Shown here in pieces: positions 1 to 16,840 of a stretch of 41,280 nt of DNA. The first letter of the stretch is position 1. Each line of letters opens with the position of its first letter. A model generated the notes under the pieces. The model saw nothing but the letters and a program-made list of their open reading frames with translations, was not told where the DNA came from and searched no databases. The translations under genes were made by a program, and so were the position numbers. Location of the stretch: positions 1 through 41,280 of the IMG/VR virus record IMGVR_UViG_2718218131_000003; one strand, given 5' to 3'. Source of the stretch: a virus. Its lineage: Duplodnaviria; Heunggongvirae; Uroviricota; Caudoviricetes.

Positions 1-1131
1 TCAAATGACCAGTTTTTTCCACTCCTTACCGCGTGCATCGTTGTAAATATCGGTCATTTTTTGATTCGAATGACCCAGCAAAATTTTAGTATCAATTCCC
101 TGTTCTCTGAACAATCTTTCTGATAAAGATCTTTGCTCATGGAAAGAGGGGGGGGTGCCATTAGCACGCCAGTTGTAATCCACAGAATCCCGGGCTTTTT
201 TAAATGCAACTGTTAACGTTGCTGGTTTAACCATCCCGCCGCGCTTACCCATCCCCTTAGCGTGATGATGGTGCAATAACCACGGACTAAGGATGTAATC
301 ACGACAGGATGACACCACGTCACCCAGGGTCAGATTTAATTTGTCGCAACGCAGAGCCAGAGGAATGGCTATCCGGGCTCCTGTTTTTTGCTGTTCGACA
401 TGAAGATAACCATCCCGGATATCCGAAAATTGCATTTTGCAAATATCTGAAAGGCGCTGGCCTGTCATCAGTGCCAGCAGCATGCCGCGCTGTAAAAAGT
501 AACCATCCTTTTCCGCTGCGTTATAAATCATCGTCCACTCATCAAAAGTCAGTCGCTGTCTTGATATCCGCACCTGCGGTTTTTTTGCCGATTCTGCAGG
601 GTTAAAGCCTGGCGGGACATCGCCCGTTTGCTGAGCTTCCCGGAAAACATCGATCAGTACCTTCCTGAAAATTTGTCCCATTCTGTTATGTCCTCTGGCC
701 TTGTACTCTTCCAGCACCGATACCACATCTTTTACGGTTATGGTATCTAACGGTCTGGTGCCAAAACGTTCACCAAATACCTTGAGAGGGGCCGCTTTTT
801 GTTTCAGCGTGTTGAGTTTGATCTCTCCGTTCTCATATCTTTCCTGTTGAATTTTTCTGTAATTATTCAGAAAAATGGAAACGGTTGATGAACCTCCGGT
901 ATCACTAATAATCTTCTCCTGCAGACTGAGCATTTGCTCCATTTGTTGTCTGGCAAGACGGCTGTTCGCTTCTGCTGCAATGGTTTCCGCCAGTTTCTGG
1001 TCAATACTGCCGAGTCCATGATTTTTACCTGTGATGGGATGCCTGTAACGCCAGTAAACTTTGTTATTTCTTTTGTCAAAATACGGAGATAAACCCGGAA
1101 CATCGGTTTTATATTTTCGCGGGCGCGCCAT
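1..1131 (-). CDS. int: tyrosine integrase (lambda Int family)
   Basis: 376-aa ORF; C-terminal catalytic region with conserved His and Tyr (LLGHSNQKMTDIY); lies next to xis at the prophage end; stop codon at window positions 1-3. Confidence 0.9.
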   Translation of the reverse strand: MARPRKYKTDVPGLSPYFDKRNNKVYWRYRHPITGKNHGLGSIDQKLAETIAAEANSRLARQQMEQMLSLQEKIISDTGGSSTVSIFLNNYRKIQQERYENGEIKLNTLKQKAAPLKVFGERFGTRPLDTITVKDVVSVLEEYKARGHNRMGQIFRKVLIDVFREAQQTGDVPPGFNPAESAKKPQVRISRQRLTFDEWTMIYNAAEKDGYFLQRGMLLALMTGQRLSDICKMQFSDIRDGYLHVEQQKTGARIAIPLALRCDKLNLTLGDVVSSCRDYILSPWLLHHHHAKGMGKRGGMVKPATLTVAFKKARDSVDYNWRANGTPPSFHEQRSLSERLFREQGIDTKILLGHSNQKMTDIYNDARGKEWKKLVI

Positions 1132-4432: not shown

Positions 4433-4490
4433 AAAAAGGGCGGCAGAGCAGTCACGGAGTAAAACTGATACCGCCAAACGTCACCAGAAA
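4433..4490 (-). ncRNA. dicF: DicF small RNA (ftsZ-targeting sRNA)
   Basis: Reverse complement of 4438..4490 reads TTTCTGGTGACGTTTGGCGGTATCAGTTTTACTCCGTGACTGCTCTGCCGCCC, followed by a T-tract (intrinsic terminator hairpin GGCGG...CCGCC); matches DicF as recalled; sits between the ydfA-side genes and dicB as in the dicB operon. Confidence 0.8.
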
Positions 4491-5952: not shown

Positions 5953-5995
5953 TTGACTTGAGATTCCTTGAGTGATTACTATTGAGAAAACTCAA
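5953..5995 (+). promoter_or_regulatory. putative rightward promoter and operator for dicC
   Basis: TTGACT (5953..5958), 18-nt spacer, TACTAT (5977..5982), then 14-bp palindrome TTGAGAAAACTCAA (5982..5995) just upstream of a GGAGG RBS and the dicC ATG at 6009. Confidence 0.45.
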
Positions 5996-6008
5996 CTTTG
6001 GAGGGGTG

Positions 6009-6771: not shown

Positions 6772-7783
6772 AAAGGTGAAAACCGGCAGTTCATCCAGTA
6801 AGTCTGTATTGACCTGGCTTGCTGATATGTGCGGTGCCGATTTGTGTGCATACCCGTCTGTATCTGCACTGGCAGAAGTAACGGAACTGAACAAAAAGAC
6901 TGTGCAGGACAGCTTACGACACCTGATGGAGATTGGGTTAATTGTTGATACCGGTGAGAGAAAAGGCAGAACAAAGCAAATTGTGGTGTACCGACTTATC
7001 GGTGTAGAAGAAAGTGTTGCCGAGCCTGAATACACCCAAAAACGGGAGTCTTTAAAGGTGGGTAAAATTGGTGCTGTTAATAAAAACAGTACCGAAAATG
7101 GTTATGTTTCAGCACAAAACAGACCCAAAAACGGAACTCTTAGCTGCATGGAAAATAACCAAAGACACCCAAATTTTCCATCAAAGACACCCAAAAACGG
7201 ATCACGGAACCCAAAGGAACCCAAAGATCTAAACCCCACACATAACGCACGCGAGAGTGCTCCGACCAGTGAGCAGGAAGTTTTATCGTTACAGGCAGCA
7301 CCCCTTGTATTCCTGGATGGCCTGAGCGAACCCATCGGAAAATTTCCGATGACCGATAGCTGGTATCCGTCACGGGATTTTCGACGACGGGCTGCGTTGT
7401 GGGGGATGGCTTTGCCGGAGACAGAATTTACACCTGCTGAACTTGCCGCCTTCCGGGACTACTGGGCAGCGGAGGGGAAAGTGTTTACGCAGATTCAGTG
7501 GGAGCAGAAATTCGCCCGTCACGTAAATCACGTCAGGGCGCAGGTTAAACCAGTCAGCAAGGGGGGGAGCCATGCAGCAGCACCAGGTGGCACCGCATCA
7601 CGGGCAGTTCAGGAAATTCGGGCAGCACGTGAGCAGTGGGAACGTGAAAACGGATTTATCAGCGACGGAAACGGCGTGGAAGCTGTGGGAACTCATGGGG
7701 GATGTTTATTCGAACCGCTGGACCCAGAAGAACGGGGTCGCACCTTCGAAGCTCTGGATTGCACAGATTGGCGCGATGACTGA
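6743..7783 (+). CDS. replication initiation protein (O-like, N-terminal HTH); 3' end uncertain
   Basis: ATG at 6743 (MSIDALRWAKK...); N-terminal winged-helix region typical of phage replication initiators; C-terminal ~70 codons overlap the P-like ORF in another frame (see finding). Confidence 0.55.
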   Translation: MSIDALRWAKKVKTGSSSSKSVLTWLADMCGADLCAYPSVSALAEVTELNKKTVQDSLRHLMEIGLIVDTGERKGRTKQIVVYRLIGVEESVAEPEYTQKRESLKVGKIGAVNKNSTENGYVSAQNRPKNGTLSCMENNQRHPNFPSKTPKNGSRNPKEPKDLNPTHNARESAPTSEQEVLSLQAAPLVFLDGLSEPIGKFPMTDSWYPSRDFRRRAALWGMALPETEFTPAELAAFRDYWAAEGKVFTQIQWEQKFARHVNHVRAQVKPVSKGGSHAAAPGGTASRAVQEIRAAREQWERENGFISDGNGVEAVGTHGGCLFEPLDPEERGRTFEALDCTDWRDD

Positions 7784-8237
7784 GCAGCAAATCCGACAGG
7801 TCTGCCGCCAGTGCATGGACCGCTGCCGGGCGGGTGAAACATGGCCTCCTGACCTGGCTGAGTTTGTGGCGTTGATTTCAGAAAGTGGAGCCAATCCATT
7901 CGGTCTGACGGTAGATGCCGTGATGGAAGAGTACCGCCGCTGGCGCAACGAGTCCTGGCGATACGACGGGAGCGATAAATACCCGTGGTCTCAGCCTGTA
8001 CTGTATCACATTTGCCTCGAAATGCGGGCAAAAGGGATTGAGCGCCAGATGACCGATGGGGAGTTAAAACGGCTTGCAGAACGGCAACTGACGAAATGGA
8101 CAAAGCATGTTGGTATGGGCCTGAGTGTTCCGCCTGTCCGGCGACAACTGGTTGCACCTAAACGCCCGTCGGGACCAACGCCAATTGAGTTGCTGAAACA
8201 GGAATATGAACGCCGGAAAGCGGCTGGGTTTGTTTGA
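7572..8237 (+). CDS. replication protein P-like (helicase loader); 5' end uncertain
   Basis: C-terminal two thirds follow lambda P layout (PPDLAEFVALI...YPWSQPVLYHICLEMRAKG...TDGELKRLAERQL); alternative in-frame ATG at 7695. Confidence 0.65.
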   Translation: MQQHQVAPHHGQFRKFGQHVSSGNVKTDLSATETAWKLWELMGDVYSNRWTQKNGVAPSKLWIAQIGAMTEQQIRQVCRQCMDRCRAGETWPPDLAEFVALISESGANPFGLTVDAVMEEYRRWRNESWRYDGSDKYPWSQPVLYHICLEMRAKGIERQMTDGELKRLAERQLTKWTKHVGMGLSVPPVRRQLVAPKRPSGPTPIELLKQEYERRKAAGFV

Positions 8238-8269
8238 GTTGAGAAGTAATTTTTACCGGGAGGAAATTT

Positions 8270-9040
8270 ATGGAGACTGTTTTTGACGCACTGAAAGCGA
8301 TGGGAAAAGCCACGTCGGTAGAGCTGGCTGCGCGACTTGATATCAGTCGTGAAGAAGTGCTGAACGAGCTGTGGGAACTGAAAAAGGCTGGCTTTGTTGA
8401 TAAAAGCGTATACACCTGGCGTGTGGCTGGCGAAGGTGAATCCGGGGTAACCGAAGAGCAGTCAGCACAATCTGAAGCACAGGATGTGCTAACCAGGGAG
8501 GTCGAACAAAAAGTTACCGCTGACATGATGATTGAGTTTATCGGTCAGGAGGGGGCTAAAACGTGTGAGGAGCTGGCGGGTAAGTTCGGTGTCAGCACTC
8601 GCAAGGTTGCTTCCACGCTGGCGGTAGTAACCGCAACGGGGCGGCTGGCACGCGTAAACCTGAACGGTAAATTTCGCTACTGCATGCCGGGCGAGAATTT
8701 ACCAGTAAAGCCGAAAGTCGCATCGGTAACGGAAAATGATGGTAAAGCCTTTCCTCAGCCAGCAGGTGTTGCGTTACCAGTACAGGAAGTTGCAACACAG
8801 GAAGATATTAAAACAGAAACTGTGGCTGATATTGTGCAATCGTTGCCATCGTTTACTGAAGCGCGAGCGGATGACTTGGTTTTACCATCGCTGCATATGG
8901 CAAACCGCGAATTGCGGCGGGCGAAAAATCATGTTCAGAAGTGGGAGCGAGTCTGCGCCGCGCTGCGGGAGCTGAACAAGCACCGGGATATTGTTCGACA
9001 GATTACTGATTCTTCCCGCCGTATTGTATCGGAAAAGTGA
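8270..9040 (+). CDS. hypothetical protein with two winged-helix-like repeats
   Basis: 256-aa ORF; two similar N-terminal segments ([28 protein letters not shown] and [28 protein letters not shown]). Confidence 0.55.
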
Positions 9041-9055
9041 TTGTCGGAGGCGCTT

Positions 9056-9478
9056 ATGGCAAAAGTATTTACACAAGAAGAGCGGGAAAAAATTAAATGG
9101 CAGGTGGTGGAACTCGTGCGCCAGAGCGGCCGTGAGACGTTACGGCAACTGGAAGCTAAAACAGGTGCGACTAGATATCTGATGAGCGTTCTTGCCAGAG
9201 AGCTGGTAGCCAGTGGCGATGTATACAACTCCGGCTACGGGTTATTCCCCTCTGAACAGGCGCGTAAGGACTGGCAAAACGCCCGCAAAAAACTCTCGAG
9301 GGCAAAGGTGAAGAAACCTGCTGTGGTTGATCCGGACCTTATCTGGTCATCACCTGACGGAGAAATACGTCGCTACGACAGCCGCCTAAACATAATCTGT
9401 CGCGAGTGCCGGAAAAGCAAGGTTATGCAGCGTGTGCTGGCGTTTTATCAGGGTAATTTTCAGGAGGTGATGGCGTGA
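9056..9478 (+). CDS. hypothetical protein
   Basis: 140-aa ORF from the ATG at 9056 preceded by GGAGG (9046..9050); first gene of a chain of translationally coupled ORFs. Confidence 0.5.
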   Translation: MAKVFTQEEREKIKWQVVELVRQSGRETLRQLEAKTGATRYLMSVLARELVASGDVYNSGYGLFPSEQARKDWQNARKKLSRAKVKKPAVVDPDLIWSSPDGEIRRYDSRLNIICRECRKSKVMQRVLAFYQGNFQEVMA

Positions 9479-9780
9479 GGGTGAGGGTTTATATCGCTGG
9501 TCCGATGACCGGGTATAAAAATTTCAACCGTGAGGCGTTCCACAATGCGGAAGAGGAACTGAAACGGGAAGGGCATACAGTCTTAAACCCGGCAGTGCTT
9601 CCGGACGGGCTCACACAGCCACACTATATGGATATTTGCATGGCAATGATTCGTTGTGTGGATGCGATTTACATGCTGAAAGGCTGGCAGCGGTCAGCAG
9701 GTGCTAAGGCAGAACTGGCGCTGGCGGAGAAACTGGGGCATGCGGTTATTTTCCAGGAGACAACCAGTGAGCGAAATTAA
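9475..9780 (+). CDS. DUF4406-like protein (nucleoside 2-deoxyribosyltransferase-like fold)
   Basis: 101-aa product beginning MRVRVYIAGPMTGYKNFNREAF, the N-terminal signature I associate with DUF4406; start overlaps the upstream stop. Confidence 0.55.
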   Translation: MRVRVYIAGPMTGYKNFNREAFHNAEEELKREGHTVLNPAVLPDGLTQPHYMDICMAMIRCVDAIYMLKGWQRSAGAKAELALAEKLGHAVIFQETTSERN

Positions 9781-10096
9781 TTACCAGGCACTGCGTGAGG
9801 CAGCAGAAGCAATAAAAGTCGTGGCAACGCCGCAAAAATTGCTTGCGTTTCGTATGAAAGTCACACCGCAGGTTGTGCTGGTGCTGCTGGATGAACTAGA
9901 AGCTAAAAACAAACGCATTACAGAACTGGAAGCGAGGGAAGTTCAATTACCGACTCGCTACGACCTTCGATATGGGCACCCAATAAATGCTGATAAGCGA
10001 CATGTCATGATACCTAAAGAAAATGGCAGTTGGCTTTGCCTGATTGACTTAGAACACGCACTACGCGTCGCTGGCATTCGCATCAAAGGAGAGTGA
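9767..10096 (+). CDS. hypothetical protein
   Basis: GTG start at 9767 overlapping the upstream stop; ~109 aa; coiled-coil-like stretch KNKRITELEAREVQL. Confidence 0.45.
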   Translation: MSEINYQALREAAEAIKVVATPQKLLAFRMKVTPQVVLVLLDELEAKNKRITELEAREVQLPTRYDLRYGHPINADKRHVMIPKENGSWLCLIDLEHALRVAGIRIKGE

Positions 10097-10097
10097 T

Positions 10098-10613
10098 ATG
10101 GCGTTAACACACCGCGAACTCTGTCAGATTGCGTACAAGTTCCTTAAGCGCAACGGGTTCAAGGTTTGCTTTCATGACCGCTTTATAGCTGTAACCAGTA
10201 CCGGAGAACAGCCAGATGCTATGGGATTCAGAAATTCAGCATCATGCCTGATAGAGGTGAAGTGTTCTCGTGCTGATTTGTTGGCAGATAGAAAAAAGCG
10301 TTTCCGTAAAAATCCCTCTCTTGGCATGGGCGACTGGCGATTCTTTATTAGTGAGCCGGGAATTATTTCAGTTGAGGATTTACCTCCTGGCTGGGGATTA
10401 CTTCACGTTGTTAACGGAAGAGTACGGAAAGTACATGGATGGCCCAGGGGTAATTGCTGTTGGGGTAATCCTGACGATAAGCCATTTACCGGGAATAAGC
10501 AGGTTGAATGCGATTACATGTTATCTGCATTAAGGCGCATGGAGTTGAGAGGGCACCTTAATGAAATATATGACGGTGTGATTGTTAATAAGAAAGAAGG
10601 AAACGCGGCATGA
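10098..10613 (+). CDS. putative PD-(D/E)xK-fold nuclease-like protein
   Basis: 171-aa ORF with GEQPDAMGF ... CLIEVKCSRADL, i.e. a PD ... ExK arrangement at the spacing seen in restriction-endonuclease-like folds; inference only. Confidence 0.45.
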   Translation: MALTHRELCQIAYKFLKRNGFKVCFHDRFIAVTSTGEQPDAMGFRNSASCLIEVKCSRADLLADRKKRFRKNPSLGMGDWRFFISEPGIISVEDLPPGWGLLHVVNGRVRKVHGWPRGNCCWGNPDDKPFTGNKQVECDYMLSALRRMELRGHLNEIYDGVIVNKKEGNAA

Positions 10614-11347
10614 TCACTATTACCAAAGATCGACTGCTGACAATCAAGCAGTGGCGCGAAATATACGGACCTGGTAGCAACGTTGTACTGCCAGCAGAAG
10701 AAGCGGAAGAACTGGCACGAATTGCTCTGGCATCGCTGGAAGCAAAACCAATAGGTGCTTTCCACATTGCAGAACAGCGAGTTGACGGCACAAGTGACTA
10801 CCTCAAGGATGGAGAATGGCCTATTGATAATGGAATTATTGAGGTCTACGCCGCCTCACCGATGACGGTAGTGCTGAACGATGTATCTGGACCTCTTGCT
10901 CTTGCTTACAAAGAGCTTACACCTGCGATTATGCGCAACCATATCGCTGTATTCGAACGATACGGAATAACCCCAAACGATAGCATCACTACAATTCATG
11001 CGCTTCGAATTGCGCTGGATGGCATAGAGCGGAGCGACGCCATGCTTCATGCCGGAAACTTTAGGGAAAACGCGAATTCGTCAACCAATAATTTTCGGGA
11101 AATTACGGAAACGTCAACCAACTCTCTGGTAACTCCGGATGGTTGGATAAGCTGTAGTGAGCGAATGCCGGATGATGGTCAGCACGTAATTATTTTATGT
11201 GATGGCGCATTCGTTCTTTATGCGCAATATCGAGACGGTGAGTTTTTTGATGTAGTCCGTGATGGTGATGAATTTTTCGAAACACAGAGCCGCAATGTAA
11301 CCGACTGGATGCCGCTACCAGAACCGCCGCAGGAGGTGCGCCAATGA
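10610..11347 (+). CDS. hypothetical protein with C-terminal DUF551-like domain
   Basis: 245-aa ORF; C-terminal segment DGWISCSERMPDDGQHVIILCDG...WMPLPEPP resembles the DUF551 phage domain. Confidence 0.5.
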   Translation: MITITKDRLLTIKQWREIYGPGSNVVLPAEEAEELARIALASLEAKPIGAFHIAEQRVDGTSDYLKDGEWPIDNGIIEVYAASPMTVVLNDVSGPLALAYKELTPAIMRNHIAVFERYGITPNDSITTIHALRIALDGIERSDAMLHAGNFRENANSSTNNFREITETSTNSLVTPDGWISCSERMPDDGQHVIILCDGAFVLYAQYRDGEFFDVVRDGDEFFETQSRNVTDWMPLPEPPQEVRQ

Positions 11348-11427
11348 ACTGGCCTGAAGCATTTGCAATTACAGGCGTTGCTATGGCTATCGCTTTTTTA
11401 GTATATGTTATTTGTCGGTGGGGGTAA
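11344..11427 (+). CDS. small hydrophobic peptide (27 aa)
   Basis: ATG at 11344 overlaps the upstream stop (ATGA); product MNWPEAFAITGVAMAIAFLVYVICRWG has a single predicted TM helix; not in the ORF track (under 60 aa). Confidence 0.35.
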   Translation: MNWPEAFAITGVAMAIAFLVYVICRWG

Positions 11428-11462
11428 AAACGTTCGCCGGGATTAACACCAAAGGAGGGAAT

Positions 11463-11567
11463 ATGTCGGATGATATATCACTGGCAATGGAAGGTGCGCT
11501 GGCTGTTGTTGCTGTTGTGGGCGTTTACTGCCTGGTTGTGTTTTTGATGGATCGACTAGGGAACTGA
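11463..11567 (+). CDS. small hydrophobic peptide (34 aa)
   Basis: ATG at 11463 preceded by AAGGAGGG (11452..11459); product MSDDISLAMEGALAVVAVVGVYCLVVFLMDRLGN has one predicted TM helix. Confidence 0.4.
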   Translation: MSDDISLAMEGALAVVAVVGVYCLVVFLMDRLGN

Positions 11568-11813
11568 ATTCATTACGATATGGGAATTCCCATATCGGGT
11601 AAAAACGGTTTGCGGGAAAAGGAGAGTTAAGTAGAATTGCTGCGGGTGCTTGAGGCTATCTGTCTCAGGCATGAACACCAAAAGGCAGATAGAGAAAAGC
11701 CCCAGTTAACATTACGCGTCCTGCAAGACGCTTAACATTAATCTGAGGCCCAATCTATGTCTCACAAATGTAGGTTAGCCTCTTACGTGCCGAAAGGCAA
11801 GGAGAAGCAGGCT

Positions 11814-11969
11814 ATGAAGCAGCAAAAGGCGATGTTAATCGCCCTGATCGTCATCTGTTTAACCGTCATAGTGACGGCACTGGTAACGAGGAAAGACCTC
11901 TGCGAGGTACGAATCCGAACCGGCCAGACGGAGGTTGCTGTCTTCACAGCTTACGAACCTGAGGAGTAA
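11814..11969 (+). CDS. hokD: Hok/Gef-family type I toxin (HokD/RelF-like)
   Basis: 51-aa product MKQQKAMLIALIVICLTVIVTALVTRKDLCEVRIRTGQTEVAVFTAYEPEE matches HokD (RelF) as recalled; AAGGAGAAG RBS upstream; the in-frame upstream extension from 11757 may be a mok-like leader. Confidence 0.85.
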   Translation: MKQQKAMLIALIVICLTVIVTALVTRKDLCEVRIRTGQTEVAVFTAYEPEE

Positions 11970-12038
11970 GAGACCTGGCGGGGGAGAAATCCCTCGCCAC
12001 CTCTGATGTGTCAGGCATCCTCAACGCACCCGCACTTA

Positions 12039-12070
12039 ACCCGCTTCGGCGGGTTTTTGTTTTTATTTTC
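12039..12070 (+). terminator. intrinsic terminator downstream of hok
   Basis: Hairpin CCCGC-TTCG-GCGGG (12040..12053) followed by TTTTTGTTTTTATTTT. Confidence 0.65.
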
Positions 12071-12186
12071 AACGCGTTTGAAGTTTTAGATGGTGCCGGA
12101 ATAGAATCAAAAATACTTAAGTAGCGCGCAGGGAGAAGAGGGATGGACCCCGAACAGGGGAGTGCTATTTATCTGGAAGGATTCTG

Positions 12187-15432: not shown

Positions 15433-16481
15433 ATGGCTAATACTGTAAAAATATCCAGTTGTGAGTTAATCAACGCTGATTGCCTGGAATTTATCCAGAC
15501 CTTACCGGAAAATTCTGTCGATCTGATAGTCACAGACCCGCCATACTTTAAAGTGAAGCCCGAGGGCTGGGATAACCAGTGGAAGGGCGACGATGATTAC
15601 CTGAAATGGCTGGATCAGTGTCTGGCGCAATTCTGGCGGGTACTGAAACCTGCCGGAAGTCTCTACCTGTTCTGTGGTCATCGCCTGGCATCTGACACCG
15701 AAATCATGATGCGTGAGCGCTTTAATGTGCTGAACCACATTATCTGGGCGAAGCCGTCCGGACGCTGGAACGGGTGCAATAAGGAAAGTCTGCGGGCGTA
15801 TTTTCCGGCAACAGAGCGCATTCTGTTTGCAGAACATTATCAGGGACCGTATCGCCCGAAAGATGATGGCTATGTGGAGCAGGGGCGCGAGCTAAAACAG
15901 CACGTCATGGCCCCGCTGATTTCTTACTTTCGTGATGCGCGTAAATCACTGGGAATAACGTCAAAACAGATAGCGGAAGCCACCGGAAAGAAAAACATGG
16001 CTTCGCACTGGTTTGGTATCAGTCAGTGGCAGTTACCGAACGAGGGTGATTACAACAAATTGCAGGCGTTGTTTGCGCGTGTTGCGGCAGAAAAACATCA
16101 GCGCGGGGAACTGGAAAAGCCACACCACCAGCTGGTCAGCACATACAGTGAGCTGAACCGGCAGTATACGGAACTGCTGAGTGAATATAAAAATTTGCGG
16201 CGGTATTTCGGTGTGACGGCGCAGGTTCCGTACACCGATGTCTGGACGCATAAACCGGTGCAGTACTATCCAGGGAAACATCCGTGCGAAAAACCGGCAG
16301 AAATGCTGCAGCAGATAATCAACGCGAGCAGTCGTCCGGGAGACCTGGTTGCAGATTTTTTATGGGTTCAGGTTCAACGGTAAAAGCGGCGATGGCACTG
16401 GGGCGTTGTGCGATTGGTGTTGAGCTGGAGACCGGACGCTTTGAACAGACAGTCAGGGAAGTTCAGGATTTAATCGTTTGA
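15433..16481 (+). pseudogene. DNA N6-adenine methyltransferase (DPPY motif), split by a frameshift at a T6 tract
   Basis: ORF 15433..16383 carries DPPY (motif IV) and ends ...DLVADFLWVQVQR; ORF 16284..16481 in another frame carries FFMGSGSTVKAAMALG (motif I, FxGxG). Frames meet at TTTTTT 16356..16361; one additional T would give a continuous ~349-aa enzyme. Confidence 0.75.
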
Positions 16482-16530: not shown

Positions 16531-16606
16531 GGCCCTTTAGCTCAGTGGTGAGAGCGAGCGACTCATAATCGCCAGGTCGCTGGTTCAAATCCAGCAAGGG
16601 CCACCA
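16531..16606 (+). tRNA. tRNA with CAU anticodon, ileX-like (tRNA-Ile2, lysidine type) or Met
   Basis: 76 nt, acceptor stem GGCCCTT/AAGGGCC, anticodon loop CTCATAA, GTTCAAATC T-loop, 3' CCA; closely resembles E. coli ileX as recalled. Confidence 0.8.
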
Positions 16607-16607
16607 A

Positions 16608-16684
16608 CCGCCACTAGCTCATCAGGAAAGAGCGTCAACCCTTTAAGTTGAGTGTGCGAGGTTCGAGTCCCCGGTGGCGGTCCA
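16608..16684 (+). tRNA. tRNA, atypical; anticodon loop CCTTTAA (UUU/Lys if canonical), isotype uncertain
   Basis: 77 nt; acceptor CCGCCAC/GTGGCGG, D-stem GCTC/GAGC, anticodon stem TCAAC/GTTGA, T-loop TTCGAGT, 3' CCA; position 33 is C rather than the near-universal U and C1-G72 starts the acceptor stem. Confidence 0.5.
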
Positions 16685-16686
16685 GT

Positions 16687-16762
<76 letters not shown>

Positions 16763-16765
16763 TAT

Positions 16766-16840
<75 letters not shown>

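Follow-up and report, generated by a model that had tools for sequence, protein, structure and literature searches.

We analysed a 41,280-nucleotide (nt) stretch of a virus of the class Caudoviricetes (IMG/VR record IMGVR_UViG_2718218131_000003; "the window" below) and, within it, six closely packed open reading frames (ORFs) that occupy positions 9056-11427 of the plus strand. ORF 1 (9056..9478) encodes a 140-amino-acid (aa) DUF977/Ren-like winged-helix protein, ORF 2 (9475..9780) a 101-aa DUF4406 protein with a minimal nucleoside 2-deoxyribosyltransferase (NDT)-like fold, and ORF 3 (9767..10096) a short, 109-aa Ead/Ea22-like protein made up of an N-terminal segment, a coiled-coil piece and an ...AGIRIKGE tail. 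ORF 4 (10098..10613) encodes a 171-aa MmcB-like PD-(D/E)xK protein with D40, E53 and K55 as predicted catalytic residues, ORF 5 (10610..11347) a 245-aa protein with a mosaic N-terminal part and a C-terminal DUF551 domain (residues 178-241), and ORF 6 (11344..11427) a hydrophobic peptide of 27 aa, MNWPEAFAITGVAMAIAFLVYVICRWG. Five of the products have strong Pfam or PHROG family matches, and RefSeq (PGAP) annotates ORFs 1-5 identically in a 99.5%-identical prophage. A reading made from the sequence alone had suggested that these ORFs could be one dedicated module; we consider it likely that they are instead six unrelated accessory genes within the rightward early (pR-type) operon of an Escherichia coli lambdoid prophage.

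The six ORFs and the five stop/start junctions between them lie where the sequence-only reading had placed them. ORFs 1 and 2 overlap in a GTGA (9475-9478), and ORFs 2 and 3 overlap by 14 nt (GTG start at 9767, TAA stop at 9778-9780). The TGA stop of ORF 3 (10094-10096) is followed by a single A and then by the ATG of ORF 4 at 10098, leaving a 1-nt gap, and the last two junctions are of the ATGA kind (10610-10613 between ORFs 4 and 5, 11344-11347 between ORFs 5 and 6). Every one of the six starts is preceded, at a distance of 4-8 nt, by a Shine-Dalgarno sequence on the plus strand: GGAGG at 9045, AGGAGG at 9462, GGAG at 9756, AAGGAGAG at 10087, GAAGGAA at 10597 and AGGAGG at 11331, the last of these 7 nt upstream of ORF 6.

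Although the couplings are thus present, they do not set the six ORFs apart. A DUF1627 gene (8270..9040, plus strand; Pfam, 3.7e-96), whose product has an N-terminal helix-turn-helix, ends 15 nt before the DUF977 start, so that the packed chain extends upstream of 9056. We found no plus-strand promoter-like site inside 9056-11427, the nearest being at 5953-5982 and 12078-12107, and no convincing terminator, the first good one lying after hok at 12038-12055. Because both kinds of signal are missing from the interval, the six ORFs are a stretch of a longer rightward early operon and no unit by themselves. They would be co-transcribed, with translation by coupling or by re-initiation, the usual mode for the early genes of lambdoid phages. 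In phage lambda, 9 of the 10 junctions between P and Q overlap as well; overlapping junctions therefore mark no special unit, and the stop/start coupling of the six ORFs is generic in lambdoid early operons rather than distinctive. A composition profile gave no island-like signal.

The module proposed by the sequence-only reading would be a nucleic-acid-modifying or defence/anti-defence one, with the DUF4406 protein altering a base or nucleotide, the PD-(D/E)xK protein cutting unmodified or foreign DNA and the remaining products acting as accessories. Tight coupling speaks for this idea, but it is generic in such operons. When the five larger chain proteins were compared with the PADLOC defence models at E≤0.1 (the 27-aa ORF lay outside the scan), no family was matched. 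Gene content at other loci, a comparison suggested by that reading, also spoke against a module: at least 80% of window positions 8200-12000 is present in just 4 of 5,426 E. coli genomes, whereas pieces of this stretch occur in 5,192, and among 39 loci of other genera that carry the gene for the 171-aa protein, tblastn found DUF4406 within 6 kb in none, DUF977 in none, Ead in 2 and DUF551 in 5. With neighbours that vary, a full arrangement that is rare and a coupling that is generic, we regard a dedicated module as very improbable, even though the predicted nuclease active site appears intact. The six would rather come from a common stock of small accessory genes of early regions, each recombining on its own and shuttling between the exo-xis (pL) and nin (pR) regions.

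The product of ORF 1 matches Pfam DUF977 over its full length (5.5e-29), and an alternative TTG start at 9041 would extend it to 145 aa. Both this protein (4.3e-48) and lambda Ren (1.6e-41) match phrog_142, "Ren-like exclusion protein." A BLASTP alignment with Ren covers the C-terminal 20 aa at 55% identity, where the two share the motif (C/K)(R/E)ECR.S..M.RVLA.Y, and both genes lie downstream of a P-like helicase-loader gene. Because of the common phrog_142 match, the shared C-terminal motif and the position downstream of the P-like gene, we assign the predicted product of ORF 1 to the lambda Ren family, at Ren's position. The two nevertheless differ: Ren has 96 aa against 140, Pfam DUF977 does not match it, and in the window the DUF1627 gene intervenes between the P-like gene and ORF 1. 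Lambda Ren, the founder of this family, reportedly counteracts Rex exclusion, something that Toothman and Herskowitz are said to have described in 1980, and an anti-exclusion ancestry of this kind would favour a defence-related module. Like the nin region of lambda (ren, ninB to ninI), the block lies between replication genes and Q and consists of short overlapping ORFs, and farther downstream RusA stands in the place of NinG. The earlier statement that no canonical NinB-NinH protein is present was correct in that the Pfam families for NinB to NinH matched none of the six products, but it overlooked the Ren-family protein, the sole lambda counterpart among them.

The earlier description of ORF 2 as encoding a DUF4406 protein resembling nucleoside 2-deoxyribosyltransferases was borne out by both a family profile match (Pfam, 1.2e-37) and an NDT-type fold. 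This N-glycosidase-type fold is common to MilB, Rcl and TIR domains, another point that the module idea can claim. Residues Y6, A8-G9-P10, D53, S74, G76 and E80 are invariant in DUF4406. E80, a candidate for the glutamate nucleophile of NDT, Rcl and MilB, falls within the stretch S74-x-G76-A-x-x-E80, which may resemble the motif of NDT and Rcl. Compared with members of the NDT-like superfamily (NDT, Rcl/DNPH1, MilB and DUF1937; 135-165 aa), DUF4406 proteins are shorter (~100 aa) and are without the elements that complete the active site and the dimer interface in NDTs. The protein is thus a stripped-down version of the NDT/MilB/Rcl fold that retains an invariant glutamate, E80; it probably either acts as a nucleotide N-glycosidase or binds nucleotides, an enzymatic role for a protein of 101 aa being plausible but unproven. 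Sequence and profile searches of the PDB with the DUF4406 and DUF551 proteins returned nothing meaningful, apart from one spurious sulfhydrylase match (0.013).

DUF4406 genes turned up in differing surroundings. In the exo-xis region of Edwardsiella the gene is close to Ead, Eai and a 3'-5' exonuclease, and in that of Enterobacter it sits between a methylase and homologues of orf63/orf73; its presence in such regions without the nuclease gene runs counter to a module. In Salmonella it is found in the pR operon after DUF977, and this pair, with its 4-nt overlap, recurs in prophages with two different replication modules, a point in favour of the module idea.

The Ead/Ea22-like product of ORF 3 matches Pfam Ead_Ea22 (PF13935) at 8.8e-12 and 46.2 bits (cut-off, 27). 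Its first 14 residues (start MSEINYQALRE) are identical at 13 of 14 positions (93%) to those of phi24B Ea22, and the final 27 nt of the ORF, K-G-E stop included, coincide exactly with the 3' end of lambda ea22. No folded C-terminal domain is present, the 109-aa ORF ending at the KGE tail straight after the coiled-coil piece, and the domains that end other Ea22 proteins are separate genes in the window. DUF551, which the sequence-only reading had recognised in ORF 5 and which Pfam supports at 1.8e-20, is such a domain: it shows 46% identity with the C-terminal end of phi24B Ea22 and is also found in the EaA-like protein of 933W. The ORF 5 product as a whole matches phrog_60, 6847, 924 and 3323 in pieces. 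ORFs 3 and 5 correspond to the two ends of phi24B Ea22, parted by a self-contained nuclease gene. According to the literature, Ea22 proteins are mosaics in which an N-terminal segment and a coiled coil are joined to swappable C-terminal domains, DUF551 being one that is portable (PMC10834534).

In Shiga toxin (Stx) phages, the Ead/Ea22, nuclease and DUF551 genes are found side by side again, there in the exo-xis (pL) region. The leftward operon of the Stx1 phage AU5Stx1 carries, between exo and xis, Ea22 (315 aa), the 171-aa gene and DUF551, spaced by an identical 1-nt gap and ATGA overlap, and a block of the window that runs from the ea22 end through the complete nuclease gene into the beginning of the DUF551 gene (10070..10744, plus strand) is 96.6% identical to that region (blastn). 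By sequence, ORFs 3-5 are thus the ea22 locus of the Stx-phage exo-xis region, here in the nin region, which the sequence-only reading had missed. The copy in the window differs in standing in the rightward operon after the replication genes instead of between exo and xis and in having an Ead protein of just 109 aa that is devoid of a C-terminal domain. The nuclease gene was not found in lambda, phi24B or 933W, though ea22 is present in all three.

The junction between ORFs 3 and 4 bears on a feature of Ea22 proteins, which are reported to end in a K/R-G-E motif of unknown significance (PMC7093339). In the window, the last codons of ORF 3 (AAA GGA GAG TGA) hold the Shine-Dalgarno sequence AAGGAG for a gene that starts 1 nt after the stop. 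The stretch concerned lies at 10070-10100 in the window, at 1048-1075 in the lambda locus and at 5973-6003 in the AU5Stx1 locus, and in lambda no coupled gene follows it. Because the Shine-Dalgarno sequence falls within the codons of the motif and the same 27 nt occur in lambda without a coupled gene, the K/R-G-E motif may be a relic of ribosome binding and of a recombination junction rather than a feature of the protein.

The 171-aa product of ORF 4 matches phrog_9263 (3e-122) and phrog_631 (1.7e-94). The phrog_631 family has no Pfam model and is called "hypothetical" in every record; it comprises 343 clusters at 90% identity and 3,181 representatives at 50% identity, and the gene occurs in 642 phage records, many Stx phages and Ackermannviridae among them. 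Used singly, the 171-aa sequence gave no usable match in Pfam, NCBIfam or the PDB sequences. The PD...ExK arrangement pointed out by the sequence-only reading is nevertheless well founded. The motif QPD40AMGF ... LIE53VK55 is present, with D40, E53 and K55 invariant in 27 homologues, invariant or nearly so in 45 distant relatives and invariant across the lambdoid and virulent-phage members, and E37, D60, D64, K67, R70, G76, G78 and R81 are likewise invariant or nearly invariant. An AlphaFold model (pLDDT, 84; pTM, 0.79) has PD-(D/E)xK topology, including the core alpha-beta-beta-beta-alpha-beta fold, and places D40 just before strand 2 (E41-45) and E53-V-K55 at the end of strand 3 (E48-54).

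A profile built from 45 diverse members matched 3dnx at E=9.4e-5, with the catalytic motifs and an S-R-x-D-F-x-x-D stretch aligned; a profile of close homologues reached only E=0.47, so that the distant members were needed to obtain the match. Foldseek searches of viral models matched phage proteins named MmcB-like, and a few family members weakly match Pfam Hjc or MmcB-like, the latter being true of 6 of the 45 relatives (best, 2.9e-4). The closest solved fold is MmcB-like, with the active-site motifs aligned. Together, the predicted fold and the conserved motif make it well supported that the 171-aa protein is a PD-(D/E)xK superfamily enzyme with an intact predicted active site, in which, going by the superfamily, D40, E53 and K55 would bind Mg2+ and cut a DNA phosphodiester bond.

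Within the superfamily, the 171-aa protein represents a distinct family, distantly related to MmcB-like proteins (formerly DUF1052; 3dnx is SPO1766) and outside PF06319 itself. The D...ExK and S-R-x-D-F-x-x-D motifs align between the two, whereas the phage protein has a conserved C-terminal helix region of its own (N133, E137, R146 and R147) and a G76-x-G78-D-W-R81 motif. The gene settings differ as well, one being phage borne in an early operon and the other an SOS-regulated chromosomal gene. Caulobacter MmcB is described as a PD-(D/E)XK endonuclease that guards the cell against mitomycin C, and a role in cross-link repair or SOS regulation is known for this protein only (PMC9578287). Some distant family members, such as P0135 (428 aa) and P0133 (258 aa), have extra N-terminal domains, and in one diverse member this domain is a TniB-like AAA+ domain (Pfam, 3.2e-6), which hints at other functional partnerships of the nuclease domain.

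The genomic context of the family offers clues to its role. The 39 loci of other genera are prophage early regions in which the gene's neighbours vary: in Serratia it comes after P, in Providencia before RusA and in Lonsdalea between NinB and NinG. By Pfam, the immediate upstream neighbour is Ead_Ea22 in 5 of 30 loci and NinB in 2, and the immediate downstream neighbour is NinG in 2 of 28, a methylase in 2-3, DUF551 in 2 and DUF968 in 1. As a Holliday-junction resolvase replacing RusA or NinG, the protein could be ruled out, at least as a simple reading, since the gene co-occurs with RusA (in the window and in Providencia) and with NinG (in Lonsdalea).

In unrelated virulent phages, homologues belonging to phrog_631 stand next to a primase gene. 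The nuclease gene of Kuttervirus Sa157lw overlaps the primase gene, whose product matches T4 gp61 at 2.7e-43 (PDB); that of Vibrio phage D493 ends 6 nt before the primase gene; that of the Vibrio Mardecavirus vB_VpS_C2 follows Pol I and two helicase genes and precedes a primase gene, the product of which had no match in the PDB; and in Dickeya phage phiDP23.1 only an ORF with a NUMOD3 motif, read as a homing-endonuclease insertion, separates the two genes. These primases were identified by PDB (T4 primase) and PHROG matches, Pfam having given none. We thus observed a phrog_631 gene directly upstream of or overlapping a DnaG/T4 gp61-type primase gene in a Kuttervirus, a Limestonevirus-like phage, a Mardecavirus and a 157-kb Vibrio phage (L047, 3980-5661; L048, 3863-5607; L051, 2980-4739; L050, 2980-5305). 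Of 80 IMG/VR loci, 15 have the gene closely followed by one for a primase; these are the large Ackermannviridae-like and Mardecavirus-like contigs. On 14 IMG/VR contigs (L074-L089), a protein of ~380 aa (383 aa; MPTRLIREGILTSERV...) is encoded downstream of the nuclease homologue; judged by eye, it may be a replication initiator (DUF1376-like).

In temperate phages, the homologues are found among replication, recombination and methylase genes. Because of this and of the position upstream of primase in virulent phages, the most likely role of the putative nuclease would be on intermediates of phage DNA replication, recombination or repair, such as branched or damaged DNA, and not in immunity. 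Its presence in strictly lytic phages, together with the primase context, also argues against a lysogen-protecting defence gene, and its place beside primase genes adds to the case against a six-gene module.

The context data also bear on whether the 171-aa protein could be a nuclease of attack or exclusion, either as the nuclease of a restriction-modification-like pair in which a phage methylase is the partner or as a degrader of host or superinfecting DNA. Methylase genes of several types (Dam-like, N6_N4, C5 and small class-I-like) adjoin the nuclease gene on either side in about a quarter of the loci surveyed (L003, L006, L013, L015, L017, L034, L035 and L039, together with ~18 IMG/VR loci among L062-L132), the window has a methylase gene of its own, and prophages often carry the nuclease gene in truncated or frameshifted form, which would be expected if it were toxic. 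However, neighbouring methylases of such different classes (Dam-like, N6_N4 and C5) beside a highly conserved nuclease do not fit a cognate specificity, and at most loci an adjacent methylase gene is missing. No adjacent cognate methyltransferase was found in the window either, where the nearest methylase gene (15433-16383) is separated from the nuclease gene by hok, DUF968, RusA and Q. Moreover, no DNA-recognition domain can be made out in this small protein, PADLOC gave no match to it, and its closest structure is a repair-type MmcB-like protein and not a restriction enzyme. We therefore think an attack or exclusion function highly unlikely.

Several observations weigh against our preferred reading of independent accessory genes that include a replication or repair nuclease. 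The functions of all six products are predictions, and the nuclease activity and substrate of the 171-aa protein are predicted from its fold and motif. The Pfam MmcB-like model (PF06319) does not match this protein even at E≤10, which is why we have not placed it in that family. A neighbouring primase gene is a feature of a few virulent lineages only, tblastn having shown none at 65 of the 80 IMG/VR loci, and the frequent methylase neighbours might be a sign of different biology. Neighbours were analysed by simple ORF picking and tblastn, methods that overlook divergent relatives. Finally, the Ead and nuclease genes are adjacent oftener than other pairs and are at times fused, so that these two may be functionally linked, in partial contradiction of their independence.

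The Ead/Ea22-nuclease pairing is, through its adjacency and fusions, the sole linkage in the block with some support, and it raises the question of whether the Ead/Ea22, nuclease and DUF551 genes form a true unit in which an Ea22 coiled-coil scaffold would recruit or regulate the nuclease, with a role in the lysis-lysogeny decision or in prophage induction such as has been reported of Ea22. The same three genes, in the same order and with the same junctions, occur in AU5Stx1, and many Stx phages are among the 642 records with the nuclease gene. Pfam places Ead_Ea22 immediately upstream in at least 5 of the 30 loci of other genera, and by eye ~10 of the 30 have an ...AAGI.V.GE tail in common. 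Naturally occurring proteins of Salmonella join an Ead N-terminus to the nuclease domain, and Ea22 is reported to favour lysogeny (PMC7093339, PMC10834534). On the other hand, the Ead and DUF551 neighbours are missing from most homologues, lambda, phi24B and 933W carry ea22 without the nuclease gene, and one apparent fusion (P0009) is a single metagenomic sequence. The genes may be adjacent simply because of an insertion at the conserved junction sequence that ends ea22, of which lambda has an identical copy. On balance, we find a three-gene unit doubtful.

The 27-aa ORF that ends the chain carries no PGAP annotation. ORFs of the same length with conservative changes follow the DUF551 genes of Stx2a_1447 (83% nt identity; MTWPDAFAIVGVAMSIALIVFAICRWG) and PPyecE_EH1910 (74%; MNWPEAFTAVGVAIAVAFILYSLFRWG), and a third copy, in Shigella phage 75/02, is broken. 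From this pattern of conservation, ORF 6 is probably a gene for a conserved small membrane peptide. A 32-aa ORF that follows DUF551 in AU5Stx1 was ruled out as its counterpart, the sequences being unrelated. A second small hydrophobic ORF, of 34 aa (MSDDISLAMEGALAVVAVVGVYCLVVFLMDRLGN), lies at 11463-11567 and corresponds to the hypothetical protein WP_001278454.1 annotated by PGAP in a near-identical genome. Three small membrane peptides are thus encoded consecutively: the 27-aa peptide, the 34-aa peptide and Hok.

The wider setting is that of a lambdoid early region. The leftward arm contains an integrase gene (1-1131, minus strand), a large exonuclease gene and the DicF antisense RNA (4438-4489, minus strand). 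The rightward chain begins with a cII/YdaT-like gene, followed by the replication genes (an O-like initiator with a DnaT domain, a lambda-P-like loader and DUF1627), the six ORFs, the 34-aa ORF, hok/sok, DUF968, RusA, a Q-type antiterminator and the DNA methylase. The hok/sok toxin-antitoxin locus (11644-12055), which closes the packed gene chain, consists of sok (Rfam, 11644-11819) and Hok (11814-11969; Pfam, 1.2e-23) and includes the strong intrinsic terminator at 12038-12055. Four tRNA genes are clustered at 16531-16837, downstream of the methylase gene.

Position ~8239 of the window is a mosaic boundary. A near-identical E. coli prophage matches the window from there onwards, but upstream of that point it has a hypothetical protein and a DnaC-like ATPase in place of the DnaT-domain O-like and lambda-P-like genes. 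In the window, the mechanical ORFs of the O-like and P-like genes overlap by 212 nt (7572-7783), and the true start of the P-like gene is probably farther downstream than the mechanical ORF start. In relatives from Serratia and Salmonella, gene callers likewise predict overlapping O-like and P-like genes.

What looked like a special module is thus a normal mosaic of early accessory genes. As a whole the block is ordinary and was annotated already at the DUF level; this analysis adds an annotation for phrog_631, along with the primase and ea22 settings in which it occurs. The ea22 locus, which has been studied for its effect on Stx prophage induction, is able to occupy either early operon and carries the nuclease gene in many Stx phages but not in the model phages. 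The phrog_631 family, very common yet labelled "hypothetical," can now be annotated as an MmcB-like PD-(D/E)xK nuclease family with a recurring primase/replication context, an annotation that leads to a concrete biochemical hypothesis. We offer as a speculative proposal, one that we rate as unlikely at present, that phrog_631 comprises undescribed and widespread replication-associated PD-(D/E)xK nucleases that go with the primase or replisome in virulent phages and act as an Ea22-coupled partner in lambdoid phages. If this were true, the nuclease could process primers, flaps or stalled forks, or start recombination-dependent replication, and some phenotypes of the Stx-phage ea22 locus would be effects of the nuclease on replication or SOS induction.

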